DNA of 64,000 nucleotides from Phycisphaerae bacterium (GTDB lineage: Bacteria > Planctomycetota > Phycisphaerae > UBA1845): NCBI GenBank assembly GCA_029260165.1, contig JAJDDT010000009.1, positions 29,074-93,073 of the forward strand, written 5' to 3'. This document shows, in pieces, positions 4,546 to 42,368 of the stretch. A program made the position numbers and the translations under genes. The notes below the pieces were generated by a model, which saw only the letters and a list, made by a program, of their open reading frames with translations, did not search any database and was not told the DNA's origin. Numbering within the stretch: position 1 is the first letter of the stretch; every line of letters begins with the position of its first letter.

Positions 4546-4947
4546 ATGACCGAGCCAACCGTCAGGGTGATCATTGAAAAAGGAATCGCCAGAATAGAAG
4601 CGCTCACGGCGGACGCTGACGTGGAAGTGCGGGATTACGACGTTGAGCTTACCCCCGAAGACCACCCACACCTTTGGACCGATGAGAATGGACGTCGGTG
4701 CGCGCGGTACTTCGTCTCTGGAGGCACGAACACACCTCCCGCACGAAGCTACGCCGCCGGACTCGAGAAACTCGCCGCAGATATGGGAACCTTTGCAGGC
4801 GTATCGACATCTTTCTCACCCGCAGCGTCCGAAGATCTTCTTCATGTACTGACCGTAAACGGCGCGGATTTCTACTTCGGCACAGACGGTCGATACGACG
4901 GCTGGGGCAAGTCCATTCAGCGCAGCCACAGCCCACCAGATGCCTGA
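4546..4947 (+). CDS. hypothetical protein (alternative GTG start at 4510)
   Basis: The ORF has a protein-like composition (VRVIIEKGIARIEALTADADVEVRDYDVELTPEDHPHLW; NGADFYFGTDGRYDGWGKS). No family was recognised, and competing antisense ORFs are Arg-rich. Confidence 0.4.
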   Translation: MTEPTVRVIIEKGIARIEALTADADVEVRDYDVELTPEDHPHLWTDENGRRCARYFVSGGTNTPPARSYAAGLEKLAADMGTFAGVSTSFSPAASEDLLHVLTVNGADFYFGTDGRYDGWGKSIQRSHSPPDA

Positions 4948-5540
4948 ATCGCACGCGAACACACCGTGGTCGGCTCGTGCAACGACCGAACAATGCAATT
5001 TGCCTTTGTGGGTGAGCGCCTGCACGGGACTCATGCGCTCTTGTCGCCGAATCGCTCCAAATCGAGCATTTGCCACGCAGAATCAACGAACTGCCCGTGC
5101 GGTTCGACCCGCAAATCGCCGTTCGCGAACAGGCCCCAATGAATTTTGAGAAGCGAGATTCACAACTATTGGTGCGAGTCCCTCGCAAGACGAAACCACA
5201 CAACGCAACATATGTGAAGCCTCTGCACTCGCGTAAGTGACTTTCAGTTCAGGGGTTACACTTCGAGACGCCGCCGATCCTCGACAGGGTCAAGGGGCTG
5301 CCCAACGTTCACCGAGTTGGCGAATATGGCACGACGAATTTGCGGGGCGGGAGCGAGCCCGGCAATTGAGCGCGTCTTCGAAACTGACACCAGGACACCG
5401 CAAAAACGGGAGCGCCTGCATGTGCGGCAAGCGCTCTTCATCCTGAAACAGACACCAAACTGACACTTTTCGGGGTTTTTCGTGATTTCACCGGGACCGG
5501 CGAGAATCGTAACCTACTACCGGGCCAAGGGTTACGCGAA

Positions 5541-23788: not shown

Positions 23789-25303
23789 TCAACGCGCGGT
23801 CAGGGGTGGTCGGGGAAGATCGCCTTCGCCCCTTGTCGCCAGTTGTGTCGAACCCATGAGATATCGATCAACGCCACACGCCGCGTCACGCCCTTCAGCA
23901 ATCGCCCACACGACCAACGATTGACCACGACGTATGTCTCCGCAGGCGAACACACCATCGACACTCGTCCTGTACATCTCGTCCGCCTGAACACACCCAC
24001 GTTGATCCAGTTGTACGCCGAACTGACCGATGATTCCGTCCGTTTCCGGGCTTACGAATCCCATCGCCAACAAAACGAGGTCCGCAGGCCAGCTCTTCTC
24101 AGAACCCGGAACCGTGCACATCCTGGATCCCGATCCATCCCCCGAAGGCTGCCAATCGACCGCGACGGCCTCCAGGCTTTTGACCCGACCGCGATCGCCG
24201 TTGAATCGGTTCGTCAGGATATTCCAGTGACGCTCGCAGCCCTCCTCGTGCGAACTGCTCGTGCGCAATTTCGCCGGCCAGTAAGGCCAGGGCTGATGAT
24301 CGGGGCGACCCTCCGGAGGTTTGGCGAGAAGCTCGAACTGCGTCACGCTCGCCGCCCCTTGTCGCGTGCTTGTGCCGACGCAATCCGATCCGGTGTCGCC
24401 ACCGCCGATGACGATCACATGTTTGTCCCGCGCGACGATATCCGCTCGATCGTCGCTGAACCACCAACCCCCATCGCACCACGCGACCGACTCACCAGCC
24501 ACCCGCCTGTTCTGTTGTGGCAGGAAGTCCATAGCCAGATGCACGCCGTCCAGCTCCCGACCGGGAATCGCCAGATCGCGTGCTTTTGTTGCCCCAACGC
24601 ACAACACAACGGCATCGAACTCATCGACGAGTTGGTAGGCTGTTACGTCCACGCCAACGTTCACACCAGTCTTGAAAATGACTCCCTCAGCCATCATCAA
24701 CGCCAGCCGACGATCGACGACCGATTTCTCCATCTTGAAATCGGGAATGCCGTACCGCAAAAGACCTCCGATTCGATCTGCTCGTTCAAACACGGTGACA
24801 AGGTGGCCAGCGCGATTCAACTGCTCCGCGCACGCCAAACCCGCCGGTCCGGACCCGACGACAGCCACGCACTTCCCCGTTCGCTTCGCGGGCGGTCGCG
24901 ACGTGATCCATCCCGATTCAAACGCCCGCTCGATGATCGACCGCTCGATGTTCTTGATCGTCACCGGTAGCTCATTGATCCCCAACACACACGCTTCCTC
25001 ACAAGGAGCGGGACAGACGCGACCGGTAATCTCGGGAAAGTTGTTGGTCGAATGAAGCGCCGCAATCGCTCGCTGCCAATCGTTCTGATACACGAGGTCA
25101 TTCCAGTCGGGAATGACGTTGCCCAGCGGACATCCCGTGGTGCAAAAAGGCACGCCGCAGTCCATGCAGCGAGCGCCCTGCTCCTGAAGCGTGGTCACCG
25201 GAAGCGGGATGCGAATTTCCCGATAGTGTTTGACACGCTCCGCGGGCGAGAGGTCCGCGGGAACCTCGCGTGAATACTCCATAAATCCCGTCGTCTTACC
25301 CAT
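23789..25303 (-). CDS. gltD: glutamate synthase (NADPH) small subunit
   Basis: [10 protein letters not shown] start, [27 protein letters not shown]. The ATG overlaps the gltB 3' end by 8 nt. Confidence 0.9.
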
Positions 25304-28300
25304 CGGATGACTCCACAACCTCAAAACCTGATGTGTCCGGCGCTTGGTCGCGACGCGAAACCGAGCGATTTTCAAGCAACACGCGCTTGTAGTCAGTTGG
25401 CATGACCTTTACGAACCGCGCCAGATACTCGTTCCATTCGTCGAGCACACGACGACCCACCGAGCTGTCCGTACAGGCGACGTGCGCCTCGATCAAACCG
25501 CGCAGCTCAGCCACGTCGTCAGGCTCCGCGATCGTCTCCAGTTCAACCATGTCCTGGTTGCACAGGAATTGTTTGAATTCACCCGTCTGATCGAAAACAT
25601 ATGCGATTCCTCCGCTCATGCCCGCCGCAAAATTCCGACCCGTCGATCCAAGCACCACGACCCGTCCGCCCGTCATGTACTCGCAACCGTGGTCCCCGAC
25701 CCCTTCCACCACCGCCCGCACGCCGCTGTTGCGAACGCAAAACCGCTCGCCCGCAATGCCCCGGATGTACGCCTCTCCGGACGTCGCGCCATAGAAAGCA
25801 ACGTTCCCGATCAGAATGTTCTCCTCAGCCACGAACGTCGACACCCTCGGTGGATAAATGATCAGCCTGCTGCCCGAAAGACCCTTGCCATAATAGTCGT
25901 TGGCGTCCCCCTCGATTTCCATGGTCATCCCACGCACCGTAAACGCCCCGAAGCTTTGACCCGCACTTCCACGAAATTTGAAATGAATCGTATCCTCGGG
26001 CAAGCCGGTCGACCCATACCTGCGCGTCACCTCGCTCGCCGTCATCGTCCCCACCGTCCGATTCGTGTTGCGAATCTCCAATTCTGTGTGCACACGCTCG
26101 CCGCGCTCAAGCGCGGGTTCAGCCAGTTTCAACAATTTCCGAGCGTCCAGCGTTTGATCAAGTCCGTGATCCTGCGGCTGCTGACAGTAGGCCCCGACGT
26201 TTTCAGGGACGTCAGGCCTGTGGAGAATCGTACTCAGGTCCAGTCCGCGTGCTTTCCAATGATCGACCGCCTTTGAAACCTCAAGCTTTTCCACACGACC
26301 CACCATCTCCTGAACGGTCCGTAACCCCAGCGACGCCATGATCTCCCGCAGCTCCTCAGCCACCAGAAACATGAAGTTGATCACATGTTCCGGTTTTCCC
26401 GCGAATTTCTTCCTCAACTCCGGATCCTGCGTCGCAATCCCAACCGGACATGTGTTCAAATGGCACTTGCGCATCATCACGCACCCGGATGCAATCAACG
26501 GGGCCGTGGCAAACCCAAACTCCTCAGCTCCCAACAAACACGCGATCGCCACGTCCCGACCCGTTCGAAGTTGACCGTCCACCTCCACCACGATTCGACT
26601 TCGCAGATCGTTCATCAGCAAAACCTGATGCGTCTCAGCCAATCCAAGCTCCCACGGAAGCCCCGCGTGCTTGATCGACGTCAACGGAGAAGACCCCGTT
26701 CCACCATCGTGACCGCTGATCAGCACCACGTCAGCCTTACCCTTGGAAACACCCGCCGCAACGGTTCCAACACCAACCTCCGAGACCAGTTTGACGTTGA
26801 TCCGGGCATGTGTATTGACGTTTTTCAAATCATAAATCAGCTGAGCAAGGTCCTCGATCGAATAGATGTCATGATGCGGCGGAGGCGAAATCAAGGGCAC
26901 ACCGGGTGTCGAATGACGTGTGCGCCCGATCCAGTCGTTCACCTTATGCCCAGGCAAATGACCACCCTCACCGGGCTTGGCTCCCTGCGCCATCTTGATC
27001 TGCAACTCGTCAGCGTTCACCAGATACTCGCTGGTCACACCGAACCGACCGGACGCGACCTGCTTGATCGCGCTGCGCATCGAATCACCCTCAGCCAGAT
27101 TCTCCGCAGCCCACGGGGACAACTCCGCCAACTCCTTGCGACGCGGATCGCCGTTGAAAAACGGCTTGAATCGAATCGGATCCTCCCCGCCCTCTCCAGT
27201 GTTGCTCTTCCCACCGATTCGATTCATCGCAATGGCCAGATTCGAGTGCGCTTCAAACGAAATGGAACCGAACGACATCGCGCCCGTCTTGAAACGCCTG
27301 ACGATTTCTCTCGCAGGCTCGACCTGATCGACCGGGATCGATTCCCCTTCAGTCACGAACTCGAACATCCCGCGCAGCGTAGCCAATTGCTTCGAATTTC
27401 GATTGGCCAACTCGCTGAACTCCGCAAAAGTCGTCGGACAATTGCCTCGAACCGCCTCAGCAAGCTTCATCAACGCCGCGGGATTGGCTTGATGATATTC
27501 CCCACGACGTCGCCACTGATACCGACCCCCACCCTCGATACGCGCATCCCCCTCCGCCGCACGCAGTGGGTAACCACTCCGGTGACGCGTCGCGCACTCC
27601 GCCGCCAGAACATCGAGACCAACCCCTCCGATCCGCGAAGGCGTGCCCGTGAAGTACCGTTCGATCACCTCCCCATTCAGCCCGACCGCTTCAACAATCT
27701 GTGCCCCGCGGTAACCGTCAAGCGTGGAAATACCCATTTTGGACATCACCTTGATGACACCCTTCTTGACAGCCTTGATGTAATTCTGCTCGATCTGATC
27801 GAAACTCAAACCCTCTTCCAGCCGCCCCTTCCCATGCATATCCGCCAGCGTTTCAAATGCCAGATACGGATTGACCGCGCCGACCCCATAAGCCAACAGC
27901 ATCGCAAAATGATGCACCTCCCGAGGCTCAGCCGATTCAAGAACCAACCCACACCGCGTGCGCGTACATTCTCGAATCAGGTGATGGTGCACAGCCGCAC
28001 ACGCCAGCAGCGCGGGCATCGCGGCGTACTCGGAATTGACACCGCGATCCGACAATATCAGCGTAGAGCATCCCTCTCGAACCGCCGCGTCAGCCGCCTC
28101 ACAAAGCTCCTCAAGAGCGTCGCGAAGCGCGTCACCCCCACCGTCCACGCAAAAGAGTATCGGGAGCGTTGTAGACCGAAGGATACCCTTGCTGCAATTC
28201 CGGATTCGTTCCAGATCGCGGTTGTTCTGCACGAAATCCTCGACACCCAGTTGACGACAGTGCAGCTCCGTCTCTTCAAACAAATCCGCTTCAGGGCCGA

Positions 28301-29966
28301 TGTTCGTCAACGTCGAAACGACCAACTCCTCGCGGATGGCATCCAGCGGAGGGTTCGTCACTTGTGCGAAAAGCTGCTTGAAGTAATCGTACAACAGCGG
28401 CGCATGCTCGCTCAAAACCGCCAGCGGTGTGTCGGTCCCCATCGATCCGATCGGCTCTACTCCGGTATTCGCCATCGGCGCGAGGATGAGTCGCAGGTCC
28501 TCGCGCGTGTATCCAAACGCTTTCTGCCGCGTCACCAGCGTATCAAAATCGTTCCCCGCAAACTTCGCCGGCTCCGGAAGATCATCCAGACGCACCATGT
28601 TGCGATCCAACCACACCCGGTAGGGTTTCCGCGCGGCAAGTTGCTCCTTGATTTCCTCATCCGGAACAATCCGCCCCGCATCCGTGTCCACGAGAAACAT
28701 CCGCCCAGGCTGCAACCGCCCCTTGAATTCAACATTCGCCGGGTCGATATCAATCACCCCGGTCTCGGAGGCCATCACGACGTAACCGTTCCTGGTCACC
28801 GTGTAACGCGACGGACGCAACCCGTTGCGATCCAACACCGCCCCAATGACCTTTCCATCCGTAAACGGAATCGACGCGGGACCGTCCCAAGGCTCCATCA
28901 TGCACGAGTGGTATTCATAAAACGCCCGCTTCGCGTCGCTCATCGTCTCATGCGATTCCCAGGCCTCGGGGATCAACATCGCGATACAATGAGGCAACGA
29001 TCTGCCCGTGTGGTAAAGCAACTCGACCGCGTTATCCAGAATAGCCGAGTCGCTGGCATGGGGGGTTGCGATTGGAAGAATCTTCGCAATGTCCTCACCG
29101 AACAACGGCGATTTGAAAAGCCTCTCGCGCGCGTGCATCCAGTTCACATTTCCCCGGAGCGTGTTGATCTCCCCGTTGTGGCACAAAAACCGGAAAGGTT
29201 GAGCCAACCCCCACGTTGGAAACGTGTTCGTGCTGTAGCGTTGATGGACCATCGCCAAACCCGACTTGAGCGATGGATCCGTCAAATCGGGATAGTAAGG
29301 CTCGACCTGCGCTGACAGCAGAAGCCCCTTATAGACCAGTGTATTCTGCGACAGGCTGGCAACATGAAAACACTCGTCGCCGTCCAGACGACCCTCGCGA
29401 ACACCCCGTTCCATCACCTTGCGGATCACATAAAGTCTGCGCTCAAACGCGTCATCGTCTCGGACACCCCCACCCCTGCCTATGAATATCTGTCGGATGA
29501 CGGGTTCACCCGCGCGCGCGATCCGACCGATCACCGAACGATCACGCGGGACATCGCGCCAACCCAGCAGTTCCTGACCCTCCTCGCGCACCACCGCCGC
29601 GAACATCTCCTCGATCGCGCGACGCCCGGCGGGGTCAGCCGGTAGAAAAACCTGCCCGATCGCGTATTCGTGCGGGTCCGGCAGTCTGATCCCGACATCG
29701 CAGGCGACGTTTTGCAGAAACTCGTGCGGCGTCTGAATCAGGATACCGCACCCGTCACCCGTCTCGGGGTCGCACCCGCAAGCCCCGCGGTGTTCGAGGT
29801 TGCGCGCAATCTCGAGCGCCTTCTCGACGATATTGTGAGACCGAACCCCGTTCAGACTCGCGATAAACCCCGCACCACACGCCGCGTTTTCAGTGTCCGG
29901 GGCGTATAAACCCCGTTTCGTGTTGTTTTCGTGTCTGGTGCGCATCATAAAACCATAGCCGGGCAA
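25296..29966 (-). CDS. gltB: glutamate synthase large subunit
   Basis: About 1550 aa. N-terminal amidotransferase Cys (ACGAGFIA), an FMN domain and a C-terminal GXGXG beta-helix domain. An alternative ATG lies about 6 codons downstream. Confidence 0.97.
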
Positions 29967-30333
29967 GCGAATTGCCCACTTTCACCCACCGTTCCTGAAG
30001 AACGGCGGTCCTATACGTTAATAAGGAGTACGAGTACCAGGCAGTGAATGAGTGCCGGTGTGAGACAGCCCCGTATCTGCACCGAACGCACCCCCGCCCC
30101 TTGCGTGAACAAGGTGCGCGTTACGGGCGACCGGGTTGGCACAAACAGACCGAACATACCGACAATGTAGCGGCTCACCACGCCAAACGCAAGGAAAAAG
30201 TCCGATTCGACAATCGCGACGGTCAACCCACGGTTGACCCATGCGCTGCCGGACCGTACGATGCCCCGCCTCCGAGGGGAGTCGCGCGTTGCGATGGCGC
30301 CTTTGGGTGAGTACAGCAAGGAACCCGACCTCA

Positions 30334-30561
30334 GTGGCCAAGACCGAAGCAATCGAAGTTGAAGGCATCGTCCTCAAGGCGCTCCCCAACGCCATGTTCC
30401 TCGTCGAACACGATTACGGCGAGGAAAAGCATGAAGTCCTCTGCACCATCGCCGGCAAGATGCGGAAATACTACATCCGCATCCTTCCGGGCGACCAGGT
30501 CACCGTCCACCTCTCACCCTACGACCTGAACCGAGGTCGCATCGTTTACCGAAAGCGCTGA
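30334..30561 (+). CDS. infA: translation initiation factor IF-1
   Basis: GTG start with AAGGA about 11 nt upstream. [24 protein letters not shown]...[30 protein letters not shown] matches IF-1 throughout, at about 75 aa. Confidence 0.9.
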
Positions 30562-30851
30562 CGTTCACCCGCCGAGAAGCCGAGAAGAACCCCTGCCAGC
30601 CGTCTGGTTCATGGCCGCAGGGGCCTGTCGATTGGGGCGAAGCATCACGCTCGTGATCAGGTTGCCGCTGCCGCGATGGAACAGCAGGTCAACGTTGCGC
30701 TCACGCGGAACAACGACCTGCCACACGGTTTTTTGTGCCCGCCGATCTTGTCATGCACCTTGTGTTCGCGATGTCTCCGTAAAACCCTTGCCACACCCAT
30801 CCACACGCGTTAGCCTCAACGGTTTGCCGAATTTCGACCGAGGAGCATCGC

Positions 30852-32207
30852 ATGCCCACCCGAAACAGCAAACCCACCCTCAAACAGCTCAAACAGAATT
30901 TCGCCGACGTCCACCCGCCCCTCACACCCGACGAAGCCATCACCGAATCATCACGCTGTTTGTTCTGCTACGACGCACCCTGCACCCGCGCCTGTCCGAC
31001 CCACATCGACATCCCCAGCTTCATCCGAAAAATAATGCACAAGGACAACGTTGGTTCTGCCGGAACGATTCTCGATTCCAATATTTTCGGAGGCTCCTGC
31101 GCCCGCGTTTGTCCAACCGAAGTCCTCTGCGAAGGGGCCTGCGTCGACAACACGATGTTGAATGCCCCAGTGCAAATCGGCAAACTCCAGCGATTCGCAT
31201 GTGACACCGCCCACGACCAAAGCTTCAACTTCTACCAACCAGGCCCCGACACAGGACAACACGTCGCCATCATCGGCGCGGGACCCGCCGGGCTGACCTG
31301 TGCCCACGAACTCCGCAAGAAGGGACACCGCGCTACCGTCCACGAAGCCCGATCCGTCGCAGGTGGACTCAACACCCTCGGCATCGCGGCTTACAAAATC
31401 ACCACCGAATTCGCCCTCACGGAAGTCGATCGCATTTTGCATCTAGGCATCGACCTGAAACTGAAATCACGCATCGACGGTGCCAAACTCGCCAAACTCC
31501 TCGACTCCCACGATGCTGTCTGCCTCGCCGTCGGTTTGGGAAACACCGCCCCCCTCAACATCCCCGGCGAAGACCACAAAGACGTCATGGAATCCCTCGA
31601 ATTCCTCTTCCAGACCCACACCAAACCGCTCAACAAGTGTCGCATCGGCAAGCATGTCGTCGTCATCGGTGGAGGCAACACCGCCATCGACGCAGCCAAC
31701 GCAGCCATCCGCCTCGGTGCAGAATCAGTCACCATCGCCTACCGACGAGACAAACAATCCATGCCCGCTTTCGACCATGAATACGAATTCGCCCTTGCAA
31801 GCAACGTTGATTTTCTCTTCAACGCCAAGCCTAAGCGATTCATGACCAAGGCGGGCAAGGTGACGGGTTTACGCTGCACTCGAACGCGATTGCAAGGCAA
31901 GGGTCGAAACGCCAAACTCGTGTCCGTCCCCAACAGCGACCACACCATCCCCGCCGACTTCATCGTCAAAGCCCTGGGACAGGAACCGCTGCTCGACCTG
32001 CTCAAATCCGTGCCCAAACTAAAAATCAACAGGAAAAACCGAATCGTCGTGGACCAGACCACCGGCGCGACGAGCGTCAAAAACCTCTTCGCCGCCGGCG
32101 ACTGCCAGGCAGACACCATGGAAGAAGTCGTCAACGCCGTCCAAAGAGGAAAAATAACCGCCGCAGGCATCCACGCGATGCTCACAGAAGGCTCGCCGGG
32201 CAGATGA
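30852..32207 (+). CDS. preT: NAD-dependent dihydropyrimidine dehydrogenase subunit PreT-like (GltD-family flavoprotein)
   Basis: SSRCLFCYDAPCTRACPTHIDIPSFIRKI, VAIIGAGPAGLTCA. It is paired with a PreA-like gene downstream. Confidence 0.8.
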   Translation: MPTRNSKPTLKQLKQNFADVHPPLTPDEAITESSRCLFCYDAPCTRACPTHIDIPSFIRKIMHKDNVGSAGTILDSNIFGGSCARVCPTEVLCEGACVDNTMLNAPVQIGKLQRFACDTAHDQSFNFYQPGPDTGQHVAIIGAGPAGLTCAHELRKKGHRATVHEARSVAGGLNTLGIAAYKITTEFALTEVDRILHLGIDLKLKSRIDGAKLAKLLDSHDAVCLAVGLGNTAPLNIPGEDHKDVMESLEFLFQTHTKPLNKCRIGKHVVVIGGGNTAIDAANAAIRLGAESVTIAYRRDKQSMPAFDHEYEFALASNVDFLFNAKPKRFMTKAGKVTGLRCTRTRLQGKGRNAKLVSVPNSDHTIPADFIVKALGQEPLLDLLKSVPKLKINRKNRIVVDQTTGATSVKNLFAAGDCQADTMEEVVNAVQRGKITAAGIHAMLTEGSPGR

Positions 32208-32761
32208 TTCGTCAACCGCAGAAGAATCCATCGAATCGTATCAAAACGAATGTAGCGTCACCCCTTGTGGGTGGCGCGATCGCTCACCGCTCTAAGAGGC
32301 TCAAGACATGGCGAAAGAGCAAATCCGTTCGGCTGCCTGAATTCGATTACAAATCACATGTACCGTACCACATCATCGTCTGCACCAGGAACCGTCAACA
32401 ACCGTTTGAAGACCAAACGCTCGCCGAAATGGTCTGCGAACAGGTTGTCGGCACTTGCGACCGCGTCAATGCCTGCCTCGGCGCGTTCTGCCTGATGCCC
32501 GATCACTTACACATGCTGATTTCCCCGGACGAGAACAGGTTGTGCTTGTCAGACATCGTAGGCCAATTCAAGGGAAAAATCACGAATCTAAGCTGGGCGC
32601 TCGGTTGGAAGGGGTAGCTATGGCAACGCCGTTTCTACGACCACATTATTCGTCACCATGAGGGCATCGCGACTGTGGCACAATATGTCTACGACAATCC
32701 GGAACGCGCTGATCTGAGCGAAGACTACGCGTATCGCCATATCGATGGTGACTTGTTATGA
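32204..32761 (+). pseudogene. REP-associated tyrosine transposase (RAYT / IS200-family HUH Y1 transposase) interrupted by an in-frame TAG at 32615-32617
   Basis: The HUH motif (PDHLHMLI) lies before the stop. In the same frame after the stop comes LWQRRFYDHIIRHHEGIATVAQYVYDNPERADL, which contains the catalytic-Tyr motif, ending at TGA 32759-32761. The N-terminal 25 codons are translated REP sequence, so the true start is unclear. Confidence 0.75.
32251..32278. repeat. REP-like palindromic element, left copy flanking the RAYT gene
   Basis: tgtagcgtcaccccttgtgggtggcgcg. It is the reverse complement of the copy at 32827-32854 with 2 mismatches, and contains a tcaccc/gggtgg hairpin. Confidence 0.75.
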
Positions 32762-32826
32762 GACCTGCGTGTTCGGAGGTTCAACTGCCCACAATGTGTG
32801 ATAACACGCCCAGCCCCCAATGCCAC

Positions 32827-32854
32827 CGCGCCGCCCACAAGGGGCGACGCTACA
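32827..32854. repeat. REP-like palindromic element, right copy (inverted) flanking the RAYT gene
   Basis: cgcgccgcccacaaggggcgacgctaca. It lies between the RAYT stop and the preA RBS. Confidence 0.75.
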
Positions 32855-32872
32855 GAATCTGAGGACCACCCC

Positions 32873-34279
32873 ATGATCGCTCCAAAATCAAACGGCCAAC
32901 CAAACCTCGCCACCGATTTCTGCGGTATCAAATCGCCAAACCCGTTCTGGCTCGCCAGCGCACCACCCACCAACTCAGGCTACCAGATCCGACGCGCCTT
33001 CGACGCGGGTTGGGGCGGCGCGGTGTGGAAAACGCTCAACCACGACCCCATCGTCAACGTCTCATCCCGATACGCCGCCGTTGACTACGACGGGCGAAAA
33101 ATCATAGGCCTCAACAACATCGAGCTGATCACCGACCGAACACTCGACGTCAATCTCAAGGAAATCGCCGAAGTCAAACGCGACTACCCCGACCACGCGC
33201 TCATCGTCTCGCTCATGGTCGAATCAAAACGCGAAACCTGGCACGACATCGTCAAACAAACCCAGGACACCGGTGCAGACGGCATCGAACTCAACTTCGG
33301 CTGCCCGCACGGCATGAGCGAGCGAGGCATGGGAGCAGCCGTCGGACAGGTCCCCGAATACTGCTGCATGATTGTCGAATGGGTGAAAGAAGCCGCCCAA
33401 ATCCCCGTCATCGTCAAACTCACACCCAACATCACCGACATCCGCCTCGCAGGTAGAGCCGCCAAAAAAGGCGGAGCCGACGCCGTCTCACTCATCAACA
33501 CCATCAACTCCGTCATGGGCATCGACCTCGACACCCTCGCACCCAAACCCGCCGTCCGTGGCAAGGGATCACACGGCGGATACTGCGGACCCGCCGTCAA
33601 ACCCATCGCCCTCAACATGGTCAGCCAGATCGCAACCGACCCCGAAATCAACCTCCCCATCAGCGGCATCGGCGGTATCCAGGCCTGGCAGGACGCAGTC
33701 GAATTCATGCTTCTCGGATCAACCTCCGTTCAGGTCTGCACCGCCGTCATGCACTACGGCTTCCGAATCGTCGAACACCTCATCAGCGGCATGACAAACT
33801 GGATGGCTGAAAAAGGATTCCAATCCACGACCGACTTCATCGGAAAATCCTCCCCACTCCTCACCAACTGGAGCGACCTCGACCTCAGCTACAAAGTCGT
33901 CGCACAAATCGAACCCGAAAAATGCATCAACTGCGGACTATGCTACATCGCCTGCGAAGACGGCTGCCACCAGTCCATCAACATCGAATCCGTCACCGAG
34001 AAAGAATTTCTCAAACGCACACCGTCCGCAAAAGATCGCGTCTTCACCTCAGGCAACAACCAATACACCCACGGAGCAGGCGACGGTTACGTCAACATCT
34101 TCACCATCAATCAGGACACCTGCGTCGGTTGCAACATGTGCTCGCTCGTCTGCCCCGTCCAAGGCTGCATCGACATGAAGGAAATCGACACCGGCAAACC
34201 CTCAATGACCTGGCGCCAATACCAGGCCCTCCTCGCCGAAGGAAAAATCGACCCCATCCAACCCCCTGAGCATGTCTGA
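32873..34279 (+). CDS. preA: dihydropyrimidine dehydrogenase subunit PreA-like (DHODH-fold plus two 4Fe-4S ferredoxin motifs)
   Basis: GAGGA RBS. FCGIKSPNPFWLASAPPTN, ELNFGCPHGM, and C-terminal CINCGLCYIACEDG and CVGCNMCSLVCP. The start is set at the ATG downstream of the REP rather than at 32798. Confidence 0.85.
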   Translation: MIAPKSNGQPNLATDFCGIKSPNPFWLASAPPTNSGYQIRRAFDAGWGGAVWKTLNHDPIVNVSSRYAAVDYDGRKIIGLNNIELITDRTLDVNLKEIAEVKRDYPDHALIVSLMVESKRETWHDIVKQTQDTGADGIELNFGCPHGMSERGMGAAVGQVPEYCCMIVEWVKEAAQIPVIVKLTPNITDIRLAGRAAKKGGADAVSLINTINSVMGIDLDTLAPKPAVRGKGSHGGYCGPAVKPIALNMVSQIATDPEINLPISGIGGIQAWQDAVEFMLLGSTSVQVCTAVMHYGFRIVEHLISGMTNWMAEKGFQSTTDFIGKSSPLLTNWSDLDLSYKVVAQIEPEKCINCGLCYIACEDGCHQSINIESVTEKEFLKRTPSAKDRVFTSGNNQYTHGAGDGYVNIFTINQDTCVGCNMCSLVCPVQGCIDMKEIDTGKPSMTWRQYQALLAEGKIDPIQPPEHV

Positions 34280-34328: not shown

Positions 34329-34909
34329 TCAACGTGACGCTTGCGCGGAACAATGACCGGCACCACGGTTCGTAACGACTTTCAAACGTCTGCGGATCAG
34401 GCTGATACCGGCGAAAAGAAGGAGACAGGTCCCAGGCTCGGGGACGGCGACGAGGGTCAGAATGTGGCTGCCATCGTCGGTCGGGACGAAACCAAAGTTC
34501 CCGTCGCCAAACGTGTTTTTCCCATCGCCGAACAGTAATTGGAATTCGCTGCCTTCAGAAACCGACTCGTCGATAAGGATATTCAGCGACGCCAGATCGA
34601 CGGTCTCGCCTTGAGGCAGTGCAAATGGCCCCGCAAAGGCCACAGCCTGCGGGTCGGGCAAAACAGGAAAAGGAAAACAGCCACCTGGTTCGCAAGGGAC
34701 CGGTACCCATGCCCAACTGGACAACGTCACCTCATTGGCAGCGCTGTTGCCAAGCCCGGTGAAATCGATAAACGTCAAGCCACCGCCGTCGTTTGCGGAT
34801 CGTCCACACCGACAGCACCCTCATACGTCAACAGCACACCACCGCGCGCAACGGCTCCGGTCGACAGGCAGGCGACAAACCCCAACGACAAACGCAACGT
34901 CTGATTCAT
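34329..34909 (-). pseudogene. PEP-CTERM-anchored secreted protein paralog, apparently frameshifted
   Basis: GGAGAGAG RBS and ATG at 34909 open a 44-codon signal-peptide ORF (MNQTLRLSLGFVACLSTGAVA...) that stops at 34775-34777. The remainder (..LTFIDFTGLG...VPEPGTCLLLFAGISLIRRR) continues in a different frame. It is homologous to the two neighbouring paralogs. Confidence 0.6.
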
Positions 34910-34959
34910 GGTTCTCTCTCCCACGAAGTGTCAGATGATTTGTAACGCCCGTCATAATA

Positions 34960-35556
34960 TCATCGCCGCCGAAATCGTCCAAACCCGAACAAACCCGCAC
35001 AGGCCAACAGACCCAGGGTCGCCGGTTCCGGAACCACACGGAATTTGCCCCGTTCGGTCCCATCCCTGATCGGGACGAATTCCTTGGTCGCATCCACTAT
35101 TTGAATCGGGTCACCGAACAGAATGTCCAGCTCAGTCCCGACGGGCCGGTCGATCATGAGATCAACCGTCGCGACCGCGACCGTTTTTCCCTTGGAAAAG
35201 GTCAACAAATCGCCAAACGCGACCGCCTGCGGATCGGGTAACCCCGTCGTGAACCATTCATTCCTGTCGTTGATCACCTCGGGAAGCCACTGCCAGTTCA
35301 AAACGCTGACATCCTTCGGCAGGTTGAACTGGAAGCCACTGAAGCTGATCTGACGTATCGCGTTCCCGCCAAAACCAACCACCCCGTCATTCATGAGGCT
35401 GATCATGACCGACACAGCACTCCCGCGCTCCAGTTCGATCCGACCGTCTCCGCCGACAAAACCCCCAGCCACGGGTTCATAGATGATGATGGCCTCTGCA
35501 AGGGCAACCGAATGCATGAGGCACAACAGCCAGAGAAACATCCAGGGACGCTTCAT
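34960..35556 (-). CDS. PEP-CTERM sorting-domain secreted protein
   Basis: GAGGGA RBS. Signal peptide MKRPWMFLWLLCLMHSVALAEA. C-terminus VVPEPATLGLLACAGLFGFGRFRRR. Confidence 0.8.
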   Translation of the reverse strand: MKRPWMFLWLLCLMHSVALAEAIIIYEPVAGGFVGGDGRIELERGSAVSVMISLMNDGVVGFGGNAIRQISFSGFQFNLPKDVSVLNWQWLPEVINDRNEWFTTGLPDPQAVAFGDLLTFSKGKTVAVATVDLMIDRPVGTELDILFGDPIQIVDATKEFVPIRDGTERGKFRVVPEPATLGLLACAGLFGFGRFRRR

Positions 35557-35836
35557 GTTTTCCCTCTCTCTCACGACGTTCGCGCGGACGCCCCAACCGT
35601 CGGCGGACGTTGCCAAACGACAACCCCTCCCAGGCTTGCGATGCGGAATGCGCGCGCGAGCGTTTGCTTCTTTCCCTCGTATTCGACACGATCGCCTCCC
35701 CAACGATCAGGCCGAACTCCCCACCAGGACCGTGCTCTCAATCTGCCCGGGTGAAATCCATCGATAGTGTCAGCCCTGTTCGTGGTCGATGTCGCCCGTC
35801 GGTTTCATCGCAAGGCCAATGTATCGTGATGTGAAC

Positions 35837-41044: not shown

Positions 41045-41324
41045 GCGCGGATCTGCTGGGACCGATAGTTTTGGCATTTCAAATCACCTGTTCGTGGGTG
41101 CGCATTGGCTGACAGGTTCGTGGCTGGGTTTCAAGCCGTCGTGGCTGATGCGCGTGAAAATCGTGTTTCGGGCTTTCACAAGCTGCTGTTGATGGTCGAT
41201 AATCCAGTGTGGGGCTTTTGCGGGTTGGGATGGTGTTTTCGGACGCATTCCGCGCTTGCGGGAAATTGGCTGCGGACGTACCGTGGTTGTCTGGATCAGC
41301 GGTCTGGAAGGGCGGAGATCGATC

Positions 41325-42251
41325 ATGCTGCGACGACTGATGAGTTTGGCCATTGTGCTGGGGTGCGTGTCGCCGGCTTCTGCGGGTTTGTTCGAGGAGG
41401 TGGCGGACGGGTTGCGGTTTTCGGGATTTATTCTCGATGCTGACTACAACCGTCTGACCGATTCGACAAGGGCGGTGGCGGCTGCGAATTTTCAGGGGAA
41501 CAACATTGATTTCGGTGTCTTCGACATCGCGGTCAATGGTCCGGTCACGTTGGCGGTGGAGGAGCACTTCCGTGGCGTGCCTGAGTTGAGCTTCACGTTG
41601 AGCACGGGACTGACCACGGTGAATCCGAACGGGGATCTGGCAATTGGTCCTGCTCAGCCTTTGACATATCTGCTGAACTTCGATTCGGGAACGAGCGAGA
41701 CGACGATCAACGGGAATTTCCTTTTCGATACGCGGGTGAACATCAACCAGTTCGGCAGTTACGATTTCAGGTTTGCGTTTTCAAATCGTGAGACGACCAC
41801 GGTGCGGGGGCGGTTTGATGCGGCGGACGGTTCGACGCTGGATTTCGATTTCGGTCCGATCGACGTCGAGGGGAATGTTTTCGCGGATTTGCTGGCAGCG
41901 GTGACGGATCCGATTTTTCAGGCGACGGGGTTCGAGAACATTTTTGCACAATTCAGCGGGCAGGTGCTTCGGCGTCAGGAGAACGACGCGTTTTTGTCGG
42001 ATTTGCAGGCGAGGCTGGAATCCGGTGGTCTGCTCACCGAGCGTGAGGCGGCGGAGTTGACGGCTCGGTCGGTGGTGGCGTCGGTGCTGGGTGATCCATT
42101 TGCGGATGAGACGTTCATTGCGGAAGCGTTGGCATCTTTTGAGGAGTCGGCGGTCGCGGGGGCGAGCAGTTTTCAGGTTCCCGAGCCTGGGGCGGGGCTG
42201 CTTCTTGCGGGGTTGGTTTTGTCGACGGTGCGTCGTCGTCGGGTTCGTTAG
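41325..42251 (+). CDS. PEP-CTERM sorting-domain secreted protein (family distinct from the 34.3-36.5 kb paralogs)
   Basis: Signal peptide MLRRLMSLAIVLGCVSPASA. C-terminus FQVPEPGAGLLLAGLVLSTVRRRRVR. Confidence 0.8.
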   Translation: MLRRLMSLAIVLGCVSPASAGLFEEVADGLRFSGFILDADYNRLTDSTRAVAAANFQGNNIDFGVFDIAVNGPVTLAVEEHFRGVPELSFTLSTGLTTVNPNGDLAIGPAQPLTYLLNFDSGTSETTINGNFLFDTRVNINQFGSYDFRFAFSNRETTTVRGRFDAADGSTLDFDFGPIDVEGNVFADLLAAVTDPIFQATGFENIFAQFSGQVLRRQENDAFLSDLQARLESGGLLTEREAAELTARSVVASVLGDPFADETFIAEALASFEESAVAGASSFQVPEPGAGLLLAGLVLSTVRRRRVR

Positions 42252-42306
42252 AACGGGTTCACCACAAACTGTCGGCTGGGGCGAATCGACGTCGGTCGGT
42301 TTTCCC

Positions 42307-42357
42307 GTCACCCACAAGGGGTGACGCTACAGAAAAATGAACGGGTGACGCTGCAGA
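42307..42357. repeat. third REP-like hairpin copy plus an adjacent tandem half-copy
   Basis: gtcacccacaaggggtgacgctaca (42307-42331) forms a perfect 7-bp stem, gtcaccc/gggtgac. gggtgacgctacagaaaaatg is then repeated as gggtgacgctgcagaagaatg from 42343. Confidence 0.7.
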
Positions 42358-42368
42358 AGAATGGTCGC

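Follow-up and report, generated by a model that had tools for sequence, protein, structure and literature searches.

The stretch of DNA analysed here, 64 kb in length and referred to throughout as the window, comes from a host in Planctomycetota/Phycisphaerae and carries a small unit between the dihydropyrimidine dehydrogenase genes preT and preA. This unit is best explained as a REPtron (a RAYT gene with two inverted cognate REPs) inserted at the preT-preA junction, whose RAYT has recently been inactivated by a nonsense change, and we give this reading a probability of roughly three in four. REPtrons and RAYT inactivation of this type are both already known, and the case is a fairly ordinary one that leaves the current understanding of the mechanism unchanged. 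REP/RAYT systems have been described mostly in Proteobacteria, and for Phycisphaerae a canonical class-2 REP/RAYT/REPIN system, tagged with GTAG, is documented by this locus and its relatives.

In the proposed course of events, the cassette, a putatively single-copy RAYT with its cognate REP on either side in inverted orientation, would have entered the 3' tail of preT immediately 5' of preA, reshaping the final preT codons and leaving both dehydrogenase genes intact, and it is probably co-transcribed with them. By analogy with the enzymes of E. coli and Stenotrophomonas, an intact RAYT would recognise the REP hairpin in single-stranded DNA and bind to it, its WQ...R residues would read the 5' GTAG, and its catalytic Tyr would cut and rejoin the DNA, spreading REPs and REPIN doublets round the chromosome. 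A single nonsense change, from AAR or CAG to TAG, would cut the protein off after the HUH motif; this truncation would cost it the residues that contact GTAG as well as the catalytic Tyr, and the gene is therefore regarded as a probable, recently inactivated pseudogene. REP mobilisation should then have ceased, barring a second RAYT elsewhere in the genome, and a repaired RAYT would be expected to bind or cleave single-stranded GTAGCGYCRCCCCTTGTGGGYGRCG.

The preT gene (30852..32207, plus strand), taken from the list of open reading frames, encodes the 451-aa small subunit of NAD-dependent dihydropyrimidine dehydrogenase, which matches Pfam Fer4_20 and Pyr_redox_2 and is 82% identical in amino acids to the preT product of the related locus L004 and 91% identical to P0136. 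The preA gene (32873..34279, plus strand) encodes the 468-aa large subunit, matching Pfam DHO_dh and Fer4_21 and 88% identical to its L004 counterpart; NCBI and JGI call its homologues PreA. The TGA stop of preT (32205-32207) shares bases with the ATG at 32204 in the RAYT frame, the overlap given in a preliminary description of this DNA. A spacer of 19 nt (32854..32872, plus strand) separates the right REP from the preA ATG and contains GAGG, which is likely the preA ribosome-binding site. The preA start, ATGATCG (32873-32879), echoes ATGAT(T)CG at 32204-32211; this direct repeat is real but short, and a target-site duplication is not claimed.

The N-terminal part of the RAYT lies in an open reading frame at 32204-32617 including the TAG (32204..32614 sense, plus strand), as identified by translation, Pfam Y1_Tnp and homologue alignment, and its conserved core begins near 32315. 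A leader of 48 nt (32204..32251, plus strand), open in the RAYT frame, runs from the overlap of preT stop and ATG (AGATGAT) to the GTAG of the left REP; alignment with L004 shows that its length is kept there and its sequence is not. Inspection of the sequence between 32204 and the conserved core found no in-frame ATG, so that the sole ATG-initiated reading does cross the left REP, as had been proposed. An in-frame GTG at 32267-32269, in the left-REP loop, is a possible alternative start; judged from the sequence, the start codon may be either ATG 32204 or GTG 32267, the choice being uncertain. The HUH motif H-L-H occupies 32504-32512, within DHLH at 32501-32512. Beyond the TAG the C-terminal part (32618..32761, plus strand) continues in the same frame, as described earlier, and ends at TGA 32759-32761. 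It contains WQ at 32621-32626, the equivalent of E. coli R104, and a candidate catalytic Tyr at 32684-32686, the first Y of YVYDNP, which aligns with Y115 of E. coli TnpA-REP in a profile alignment with PDB 4ER8. All of W94, Q95, R104 and Y115 of 4ER8 thus align 3' of the TAG, and the first three contact GTAG in E. coli TnpA-REP (PMC6006769). Because LWQRRFYDH and YVYDNP stand 3' of an in-frame stop, they fall outside the predicted product.

Family searches were run on the repaired RAYT, with the TAG masked. Pfam Y1_Tnp (PF01797) spans the TAG from model position 3 to 120 of 121 (E = 2e-15), an end-to-end match that agrees with the HUH gene reported between the repeats. The repaired RAYT reaches 80.7 bits on NCBIfam REP_Tyr_transpos (NF047646), a small margin over the cutoff of 80, which intact homologues, scoring 64-77, fall below; on NCBIfam transpos_IS200 (NF033573) it scores 40.4 bits, under the cutoff of 55. 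Its best relative of solved structure is 4ER8, E. coli TnpA-REP (E = 6.8e-10), with further PDB matches, on the IS200/IS605 side, to 2XM3, 2FYX and 2F4F. These sequence comparisons support a protein of RAYT type (TnpA-REP, class-2 Y1 HUH) rather than of IS200 type, and tblastn finds one copy within the 64-kb window. Planctomycetes are placed by the survey PMC6006769 only in class 3 (NHVH, W[TA], Y...EQ); assignment to that class was ruled out because its motifs differ from those of the window RAYT.

The in-frame TAG (32615..32617, plus strand) lies between the two catalytic motifs, as first described, with the HUH motif 5' and the GTAG-contact residues WQ/R and the catalytic Tyr 3'. It aligns with a variable residue of the motif GWxG-x-LWQxRFYDH, occupied by K, K, P, T, R, R, Q and G in eight intact homologues. 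None of these eight (32-57% identical to the window RAYT) has a stop in this column, and the syntenic RAYT of L004 reads AAA at the codon. Conservation amounts to 51-64% on the 3' side of the TAG as against 37-59% on the 5' side, with no downstream decay, and the lesion is considered recent because conservation of the C-terminal part has not fallen behind that of the N-terminal part. On the sequence evidence the TAG is best read as a recent nonsense mutation or a base-call error, not as recoding. A search for the exact product in an independent assembly, with P0001, the edge-started partial product 32249-32617 and the GTG-started product, gave no match.

An intact gene carrying a base-call error would equally show no decay 3' of the TAG. 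The RAYT might be intact in the organism, with a TAG that stems from faulty assembly or consensus calling, or from a minority variant, of a metagenome-assembled genome (MAG), and this we consider unlikely. The contig is MAG-like, P0001 being found on a single NCBI contig of 95,879 nt. Substitution errors are rare in a short-read consensus at normal coverage. All invariant residues 3' of the TAG are kept without excess divergence, and a single base change would restore a sense codon, as the AAA of L004 illustrates; yet naturally interrupted RAYTs exist, with in-frame stops in 2 of 80 distant relatives among the matches listed in a metagenome scan, and with frameshifted copies in Neisseria. An independent Logan assembly of SRR15505517 agrees at every base with the flanks of the gene in the window (3.4 kb and 4.4 kb), which speaks against an assembly error; the Logan contigs end at both REPs, so this comparison covers the DNA outside the TAG-bearing stretch.

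A functional TAG, at which low-level readthrough or suppression would yield a little full-length RAYT and so throttle REP mobilisation, is highly improbable. The frame 3' of the TAG is open and fully conserved, and the TAG is directly followed by C; in E. coli, stops with C in this position terminate weakly. The TAG is nevertheless conserved in none of the eight homologues, the syntenic one included, and it serves as a normal stop codon here, closing 8 of the 33 long open reading frames of the window. None of the three tRNAs in the window (tRNA-Val, tRNA-Ala and tRNA-Glu) has the CUA anticodon of a suppressor, and folding revealed no RNA structure 3' of the TAG (z = +0.49). Of the two outcomes envisaged in the preliminary description, fresh inactivation is thus favoured, because no homologue has the stop, TAG is an ordinary terminator, no structure follows it and no decay lies downstream, and readthrough has gained no positive evidence. 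A parallel to the preferred reading of a recent nonsense change is found in Neisseria gonorrhoeae and N. meningitidis, where a single-copy RAYT, as the window RAYT putatively is, is interrupted by a premature stop, with the REP/REPIN family persisting; there homopolymer tracts have shifted the frame and decay of the REPINs is documented, whereas the window lesion is a nonsense substitution, and Bertels and Rainey proposed the Neisseria frameshifts as a reversible on/off switch, a point in favour of a functional TAG (bioRxiv 10.1101/2021.07.10.451892).

The 28-nt inverted repeat originally reported proved slightly longer, a repeat search giving arms of 33 nt (32251-32283 and 32822-32854) that are 88% complementary. 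The 20-22-mer REP core has three matches in the window (0.00 expected from 100 shuffles), and folding shows each arm to consist of GTAG followed by a stem of 8-9 bp and a 5-nt loop, with a compensatory change of A-T to G-C between left and right REP. A covariance-model scan of the window returned exactly three copies, each at E ~1e-10. The left REP (32252..32276, plus strand; 48.8 bits, E = 1.3e-10) has its GTAG at 32252-32255, a stem of 32256-32263 with 32269-32276 and a loop at 32264-32268, and folds as DNA with -10.1 kcal/mol. The right REP (32829..32853, minus strand; 47.4 bits, E = 2.9e-10) is inverted, its minus-strand GTAG lying at 32850-32853. The third, solitary REP (42306..42330, minus strand; 47.3 bits, E = 3.1e-10) is intergenic, 3' of the open reading frame of a PEP-CTERM protein and 5' of tRNA-Ala, and has a truncated direct partial copy beside it at 42344-42358; apart from this singlet with its partial copy, the window has no REP outside the flanking pair, and no REPIN doublet.

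The same REP is found in more than 111 genomic stretches, mostly from Phycisphaerae (MAGs), and it is shared across phyla, with Paralcaligenes ureilyticus DSM 24591; the scan of genome contigs covered other genomes, and for the window's own genome the REP count covers the 64 kb. Many REPs in the related genomes form +/- doublets (REPINs) with starts 38-40 nt apart. Their stems covary, pair 13-25 being AU in 43 sequences and GC in 24, and pair 11-27 being CG in 26, UA in 25 and UG in 13; the covariation score was reached by 0 of 500 shuffles. The preliminary description of a REPtron-like unit is accordingly borne out by the RAYT-type protein and by inverted GTAG hairpins that occur also away from RAYT genes, in the window and in many genomes. 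A promoter/terminator scan and a search of Rfam gave no signal and no match, respectively, over background.

The hairpins at the ends of IS200/IS605 elements lie on the same strand and are not inverted. That the unit is an ordinary insertion sequence of this type, with the 28-33-nt repeats as its terminal inverted repeats, is scarcely credible, since a protein of the Y1_Tnp superfamily, the HUH/Y1 catalytic fold and a coding sequence with hairpins at its borders, both shared with IS608 and ISDra2, and close relatives lacking the unit at the same site are set against an IS200 score under the cutoff where the RAYT model reaches its own, a Y motif YVYDNP (class 2) instead of Y..ENQ (Table 1 of PMC6006769), inverted flanking hairpins, one copy of the 660-nt unit and its gene within the 64-kb window, and repeats dispersed without the gene, with a lone copy at 42306 and, in many genomes, doublets that enclose no gene.

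Among known systems, the REPtron of the window resembles the Group 3 REPtrons (Quentin subclass 2.5; for example Stenotrophomonas maltophilia REPtron Sm, PMC8266576), with which it shares a GTAG abutting an 8-bp stem, a small loop, the motifs DH[LF]H, WQ and Y..xNP, a protein of about 150-160 aa and inverted REPs around tnpA, a likeness that rests on motifs rather than on subclass HMMs. It differs from them in its 5-nt loop, in YVYDNP in place of YI[VI]ANP, in the TAG-interrupted gene and in its host, subclass 2.5 being listed for xanthomonads and pseudomonads. E. coli TnpA-REP (RAYT, YafM, PDB 4ER8; Group 2) aligns at the HUH motif, W94/Q95, R104 and Y115, and GTAG-tagged REPs are common to both; the E. 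coli REPs, unlike those of the window, are imperfect palindromes of greater length that are arranged in BIMEs. Subclass 2.2 has WE and YIHYNP (Table 1 of PMC6006769) where the window has WQ and YVYDNP, and identity is low.

Comparison of homologous loci supports the insertion between preT and preA that had been suggested, and clarifies the spacing of the two genes: in four relatives (L200, L203/L204, L201 and L202) preT and preA are adjacent without an insert, and L004 carries an uninterrupted RAYT at the junction where the window has its own. The nonsense copy and this intact orthologue, which lies in GCA_028289375.1, form a natural pair in which to ask whether REPs decay after RAYT loss. The right-flank spacer of L004 retains TGCGAGGTAA, which equals the preT 3' end of the empty-site locus L200 (0 of 300 shuffles); alignments in search of the ancestral end of preT within the window's left spacer, or of a target-site duplication, were non-significant, matched by 76 and 144 of 300 shuffles. 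The stretch GGGACCACAAGTCCC in the empty site of L200, considered as a REP remnant, was judged a chance resemblance.

In the preT/preA tree, ((window +, L203 -), (L004 +, L200 -)) with outgroups - (+ denoting presence of the insert), the two + alleles have a derived arrangement in common, with a 451-aa preT, the AGATGAT overlap of stop and ATG, and 48 nt to the GTAG, and the two - alleles share another, with a 454-aa preT, GCGAGGTAA, then 4 nt and the ATG. The two syntenic RAYTs are 54% identical, no closer to each other than to non-syntenic ones (55-57%). To account for this interleaved presence and absence of the insert on the flanking-gene tree, the whole REP-RAYT-REP cassette may tentatively be seen as a discrete unit that is acquired, lost or swapped at one specific junction. 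Under this doubtful reading, site-specific insertion or clean loss would have happened repeatedly, or recombination would have replaced one allele by the other; any of these, if true, would be evidence for RAYT gene movement, against the statement of 'no evidence of tnpAREP mobility' (PMC8266576), and the pattern at this operon junction is a small, concrete lead on whether RAYT genes move. Flanking-gene DNA is 71-75% identical among the compared loci and synonymous sites are saturated, so that dN/dS is unsuitable here.

In L004, L005 and L002 the same REP adjoins RAYTs just 54-57% identical to the window RAYT, and L004 and L005 also have the arrangement of a RAYT flanked by inverted REPs. A REP conserved across hosts with RAYTs about 55% identical offers natural variants, with stem covariation, for the study of RAYT-REP recognition. 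Among more distant RAYT relatives from metagenomes, at most 42% identical among the matches listed and used for base rates only, inverted repeats 18 nt or more in length flank 36 of 69 loci among the matches listed, many of them GTAG hairpins.

The unit lying between preT (30852-32207) and preA (32873-34279) is a canonical REPtron, a RAYT (TnpA-REP-type Y1/HUH transposase) bracketed by inverted REPs, from an under-described phylum, and its RAYT appears to be freshly inactivated. The sequence features and the main interpretation of the preliminary description were upheld; its inverted repeat was recovered by a repeat search as two arms of 33 nt (32251-32283 and 32822-32854) that are 88% complementary. 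Folded as single-stranded DNA, each flanking copy consists of GTAG followed by a 9-bp stem with a 5-nt loop, and between the two of them an A-T pair is exchanged for G-C, a compensatory change. Matches to the REP core, a 20-22-mer, number three in the 64-kb window, where shuffled sequence gives an expectation of 0.00, and a covariance model built from the 68 distinct copies described below likewise recovered exactly three copies there (E about 1e-10 for each) with no other credible match. The third full copy (42306-42330) is intergenic, near tRNA-Ala. Private terminal repeats of an ordinary insertion sequence were therefore rejected, as this copy stands between genes, away from the RAYT, and REP recurs elsewhere. 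In an independent Logan assembly (SRR15505517), one contig (L001, 100% identical to the window over 3,394 nt) stops inside the left REP and another (L119, matched by its exact preA product) starts inside the right REP, at window positions 32277 and 32829, both contigs otherwise being identical to the window; such breaks are of the kind expected where a repeat is multi-copy. The inner 0.6-kb piece forms a separate contig. A truncated direct partial copy, GGTGACGCTGCAGAA, lies at 42344-42358, 24 nt from the solitary REP, an arrangement unlike the inverted doublets of related genomes.

A scan with GTAGCGYCRCCCCTYGTGGGYG, covering one genome per species, placed REP in more than 111 other stretches among the matches listed. 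The majority of the listed matches are from Phycisphaerae or Planctomycetota MAGs, and many are +/- doublets, 38-40 nt from start to start, which is the REPIN arrangement. No RAYT of the window family is encoded at the listed loci. Stem pairing reaches 98% over 68 distinct copies; pair 13-25 occurs as AU in 43 sequences and as GC in 24, pair 11-27 as CG in 26, as UA in 25 and as UG in 13, and none of 500 shuffles reached the covariation score. A near-identical REP, TGTAGCGCCACCCCTTGTGGGTGGCA, recurs among the listed matches in Betaproteobacteria of the Alcaligenaceae, with at least 13 loci in Paralcaligenes ureilyticus DSM 24591 and four in a Candidimonas MAG (23 copies in the loci examined), and single matches were listed in Chloroflexota, Fervidibacter and Solirubrobacterales; by our own estimate, chance would give about one match over the whole collection. 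These Alcaligenaceae and other non-planctomycete matches are at loci L012, L019, L033, L037, L040, L041, L044-L046, L052, L053, L055, L059, L065, L066, L069 and L082. That so similar a REP is shared between phyla suggests that a REP/RAYT system was transferred or that RAYTs converged on one specificity.

The gene between the repeats, earlier described as IS200/RAYT-type, is a RAYT. Masked for its stop, it matches Pfam Y1_Tnp over model positions 3-120 of 121 (E = 2e-15), and the repaired protein, with the TAG replaced, scores 80.7 bits against the NCBIfam REP_Tyr_transpos model (cutoff 80). Identity as an IS200/IS605 transposase was rejected (40.4 bits versus a cutoff of 55). In its motifs, DHLH / WQ / Y..DNP, the protein agrees with class 2 in Table 1 of Quentin et al., subclasses 2.5 and 2.2 being nearest, and disagrees with class 3, which these authors reported from Planctomycetes. 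As claimed, the ORF (32204-32617) begins with an ATG overlapping the preT TGA, crosses the left REP and ends at an in-frame TAG (32615-32617), beyond which the frame continues for 47 further codons to a TGA (32759-32761). With a profile of the window RAYT and eight homologues, the best solved relative is E. coli TnpA-REP (PDB 4ER8), whose catalytic Y115 aligns with the first Tyr of YVYDNP (32684-32686). Its W94, Q95 and R104, reported to contact GTAG (PMC6006769), align with LWQ...IIR, directly 3' of the TAG. Since these residues all fall after the TAG, the predicted product would retain the HUH motif (32504-32512, + strand), which lies upstream of it, and would lack the GTAG-reading residues and the nucleophile.

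Recoding of the TAG was the alternative to inactivation in the preliminary description. No suppressor tRNA was found in the window, which encodes three tRNAs (for Val, Ala and Glu), and the RNA 3' of the TAG is no more stable in its fold than shuffled controls (z = +0.49). TAG is an ordinary terminator here, ending 8 of the 33 long ORFs in the window. None of the eight homologues has a stop at that column, which is variable (K, K, P, T, R, R, Q, G), and the syntenic orthologue in L004 (GCA_028289375.1) has AAA. Identity to the homologues is 37-59% before the TAG and 51-64% after it, the same pattern as among the homologues themselves. Taken together, the variable column, ordinary TAG use, unremarkable folding of the 3' RNA and undecayed C-terminal part favour a single, recent nonsense change, or an error in base calling, over recoding. 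REPIN decay has already been documented both after frameshift-derived premature stops in RAYTs and after loss of the whole gene, with examples from Neisseria, E. coli and Pseudomonas (bioRxiv 10.1101/2021.07.10.451892).

Six homologues (P0002-P0007) are intact, 160-186 aa long and 51-57% identical to the window RAYT. REP adjoins the RAYT in all three homologous loci read (L002, L004 and L005), in inverted copies on both sides in L004 and L005. The third, L002, from a complete Phycisphaerales MAG (CP070744.1), represents another layout within this REPtron family, with a REP doublet upstream (4871-4895, +; 4962-4986, -), the ATG of P0002 lying 3' of REP, and no REP found within 5 kb downstream. 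Of the more distant metagenome relatives, 69 have enough flanking DNA, and in 36 of these the RAYT lies between inverted repeats 18 nt or longer, many of which are GTAG hairpins; an in-frame stop interrupts 2 of 80.

Between REP and the conserved core, the window, L004 and L005 all lack an in-frame ATG. The long ORF of each crosses REP in the same frame (peptide NVA[SP]PLVGG) and has an in-frame GTG in the REP loop; were this GTG the RAYT start, the REP hairpin would cover the start codon. The starting ATG of the 160-aa homologues aligns with ATC in the window. The ORF through the left REP begins at or near the upstream gene stop (window 32204-32280; L004 5001-5075; L005 5001-5060).

The preT and preA neighbours have the expected Pfam domain make-up, and their homologues are called PreA in public sources. 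Ordered by preT/preA identity, the relatives give ((window, L203), (L004, L200)), (L201, L202). In L004 the corresponding junction holds an intact RAYT, and this locus shares with the window the AGATGAT stop/ATG overlap and the distance of exactly 48 nt from ATG to GTAG, of unconserved sequence; the REPs are conserved, whereas the surrounding spacers have fully diverged. That the cassette is an insertion was upheld by L200, sister of L004, and L203/L204, closest to the window (preT 91% identical), which lack it: their 454-aa preT ends in ...GCGAGGTAA, followed by 4 nt and the preA ATG. In the outgroups preT and preA overlap. Sequence to the right of the L004 insert still includes TGCGAGGTAA (10/10 bases; 0/300 shuffles as good); the cassette therefore landed in the last preT codons, which left preT with a changed tail and a different stop. 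Presence and absence are interleaved among these relatives, which calls for a single gain with two losses, for two separate gains at one point, or for an exchange of alleles. At 53.8% identity the two syntenic RAYTs resemble each other no more closely than non-syntenic pairs do; the RAYT identity matrix is star-like, which, with the four taxa compared, may reflect saturation or real incongruence. A direct repeat, ATGAT(T)CG, brackets the cassette (window 32204-32211 and 32873-32879; L004 5001-5007 and 5672-5678), its left copy providing the preT stop and its right copy forming the start of preA. Its small size argues against calling it a target-site duplication, and IS200-type transposition is not known to produce these.

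The flanks of the pair (window 25296-32207 and 34329-35703) were compared with L004, L200 and L203, where preT-preA lies within a pyrimidine-degradation cluster, with an amidohydrolase upstream in L004 and L203, and with CN-hydrolase, xanthine/uracil permease and then an Aminotran_3 gene (L004) or an unannotated gene (L200) downstream. Upstream of the pair the window has gltB and infA, and downstream it has genes for PEP-CTERM proteins, so the neighbourhood is rearranged in its lineage. Several window ORFs (34960-35703, 34329-34778, 41256-42251) have PEP-CTERM-like sorting tails, for example VPEPATLGLLACAGLFGFGRFRRR, and two ORFs downstream of preA show faint or weak PEP_exosort_dom matches in the Logan annotation of the same genome (L119).
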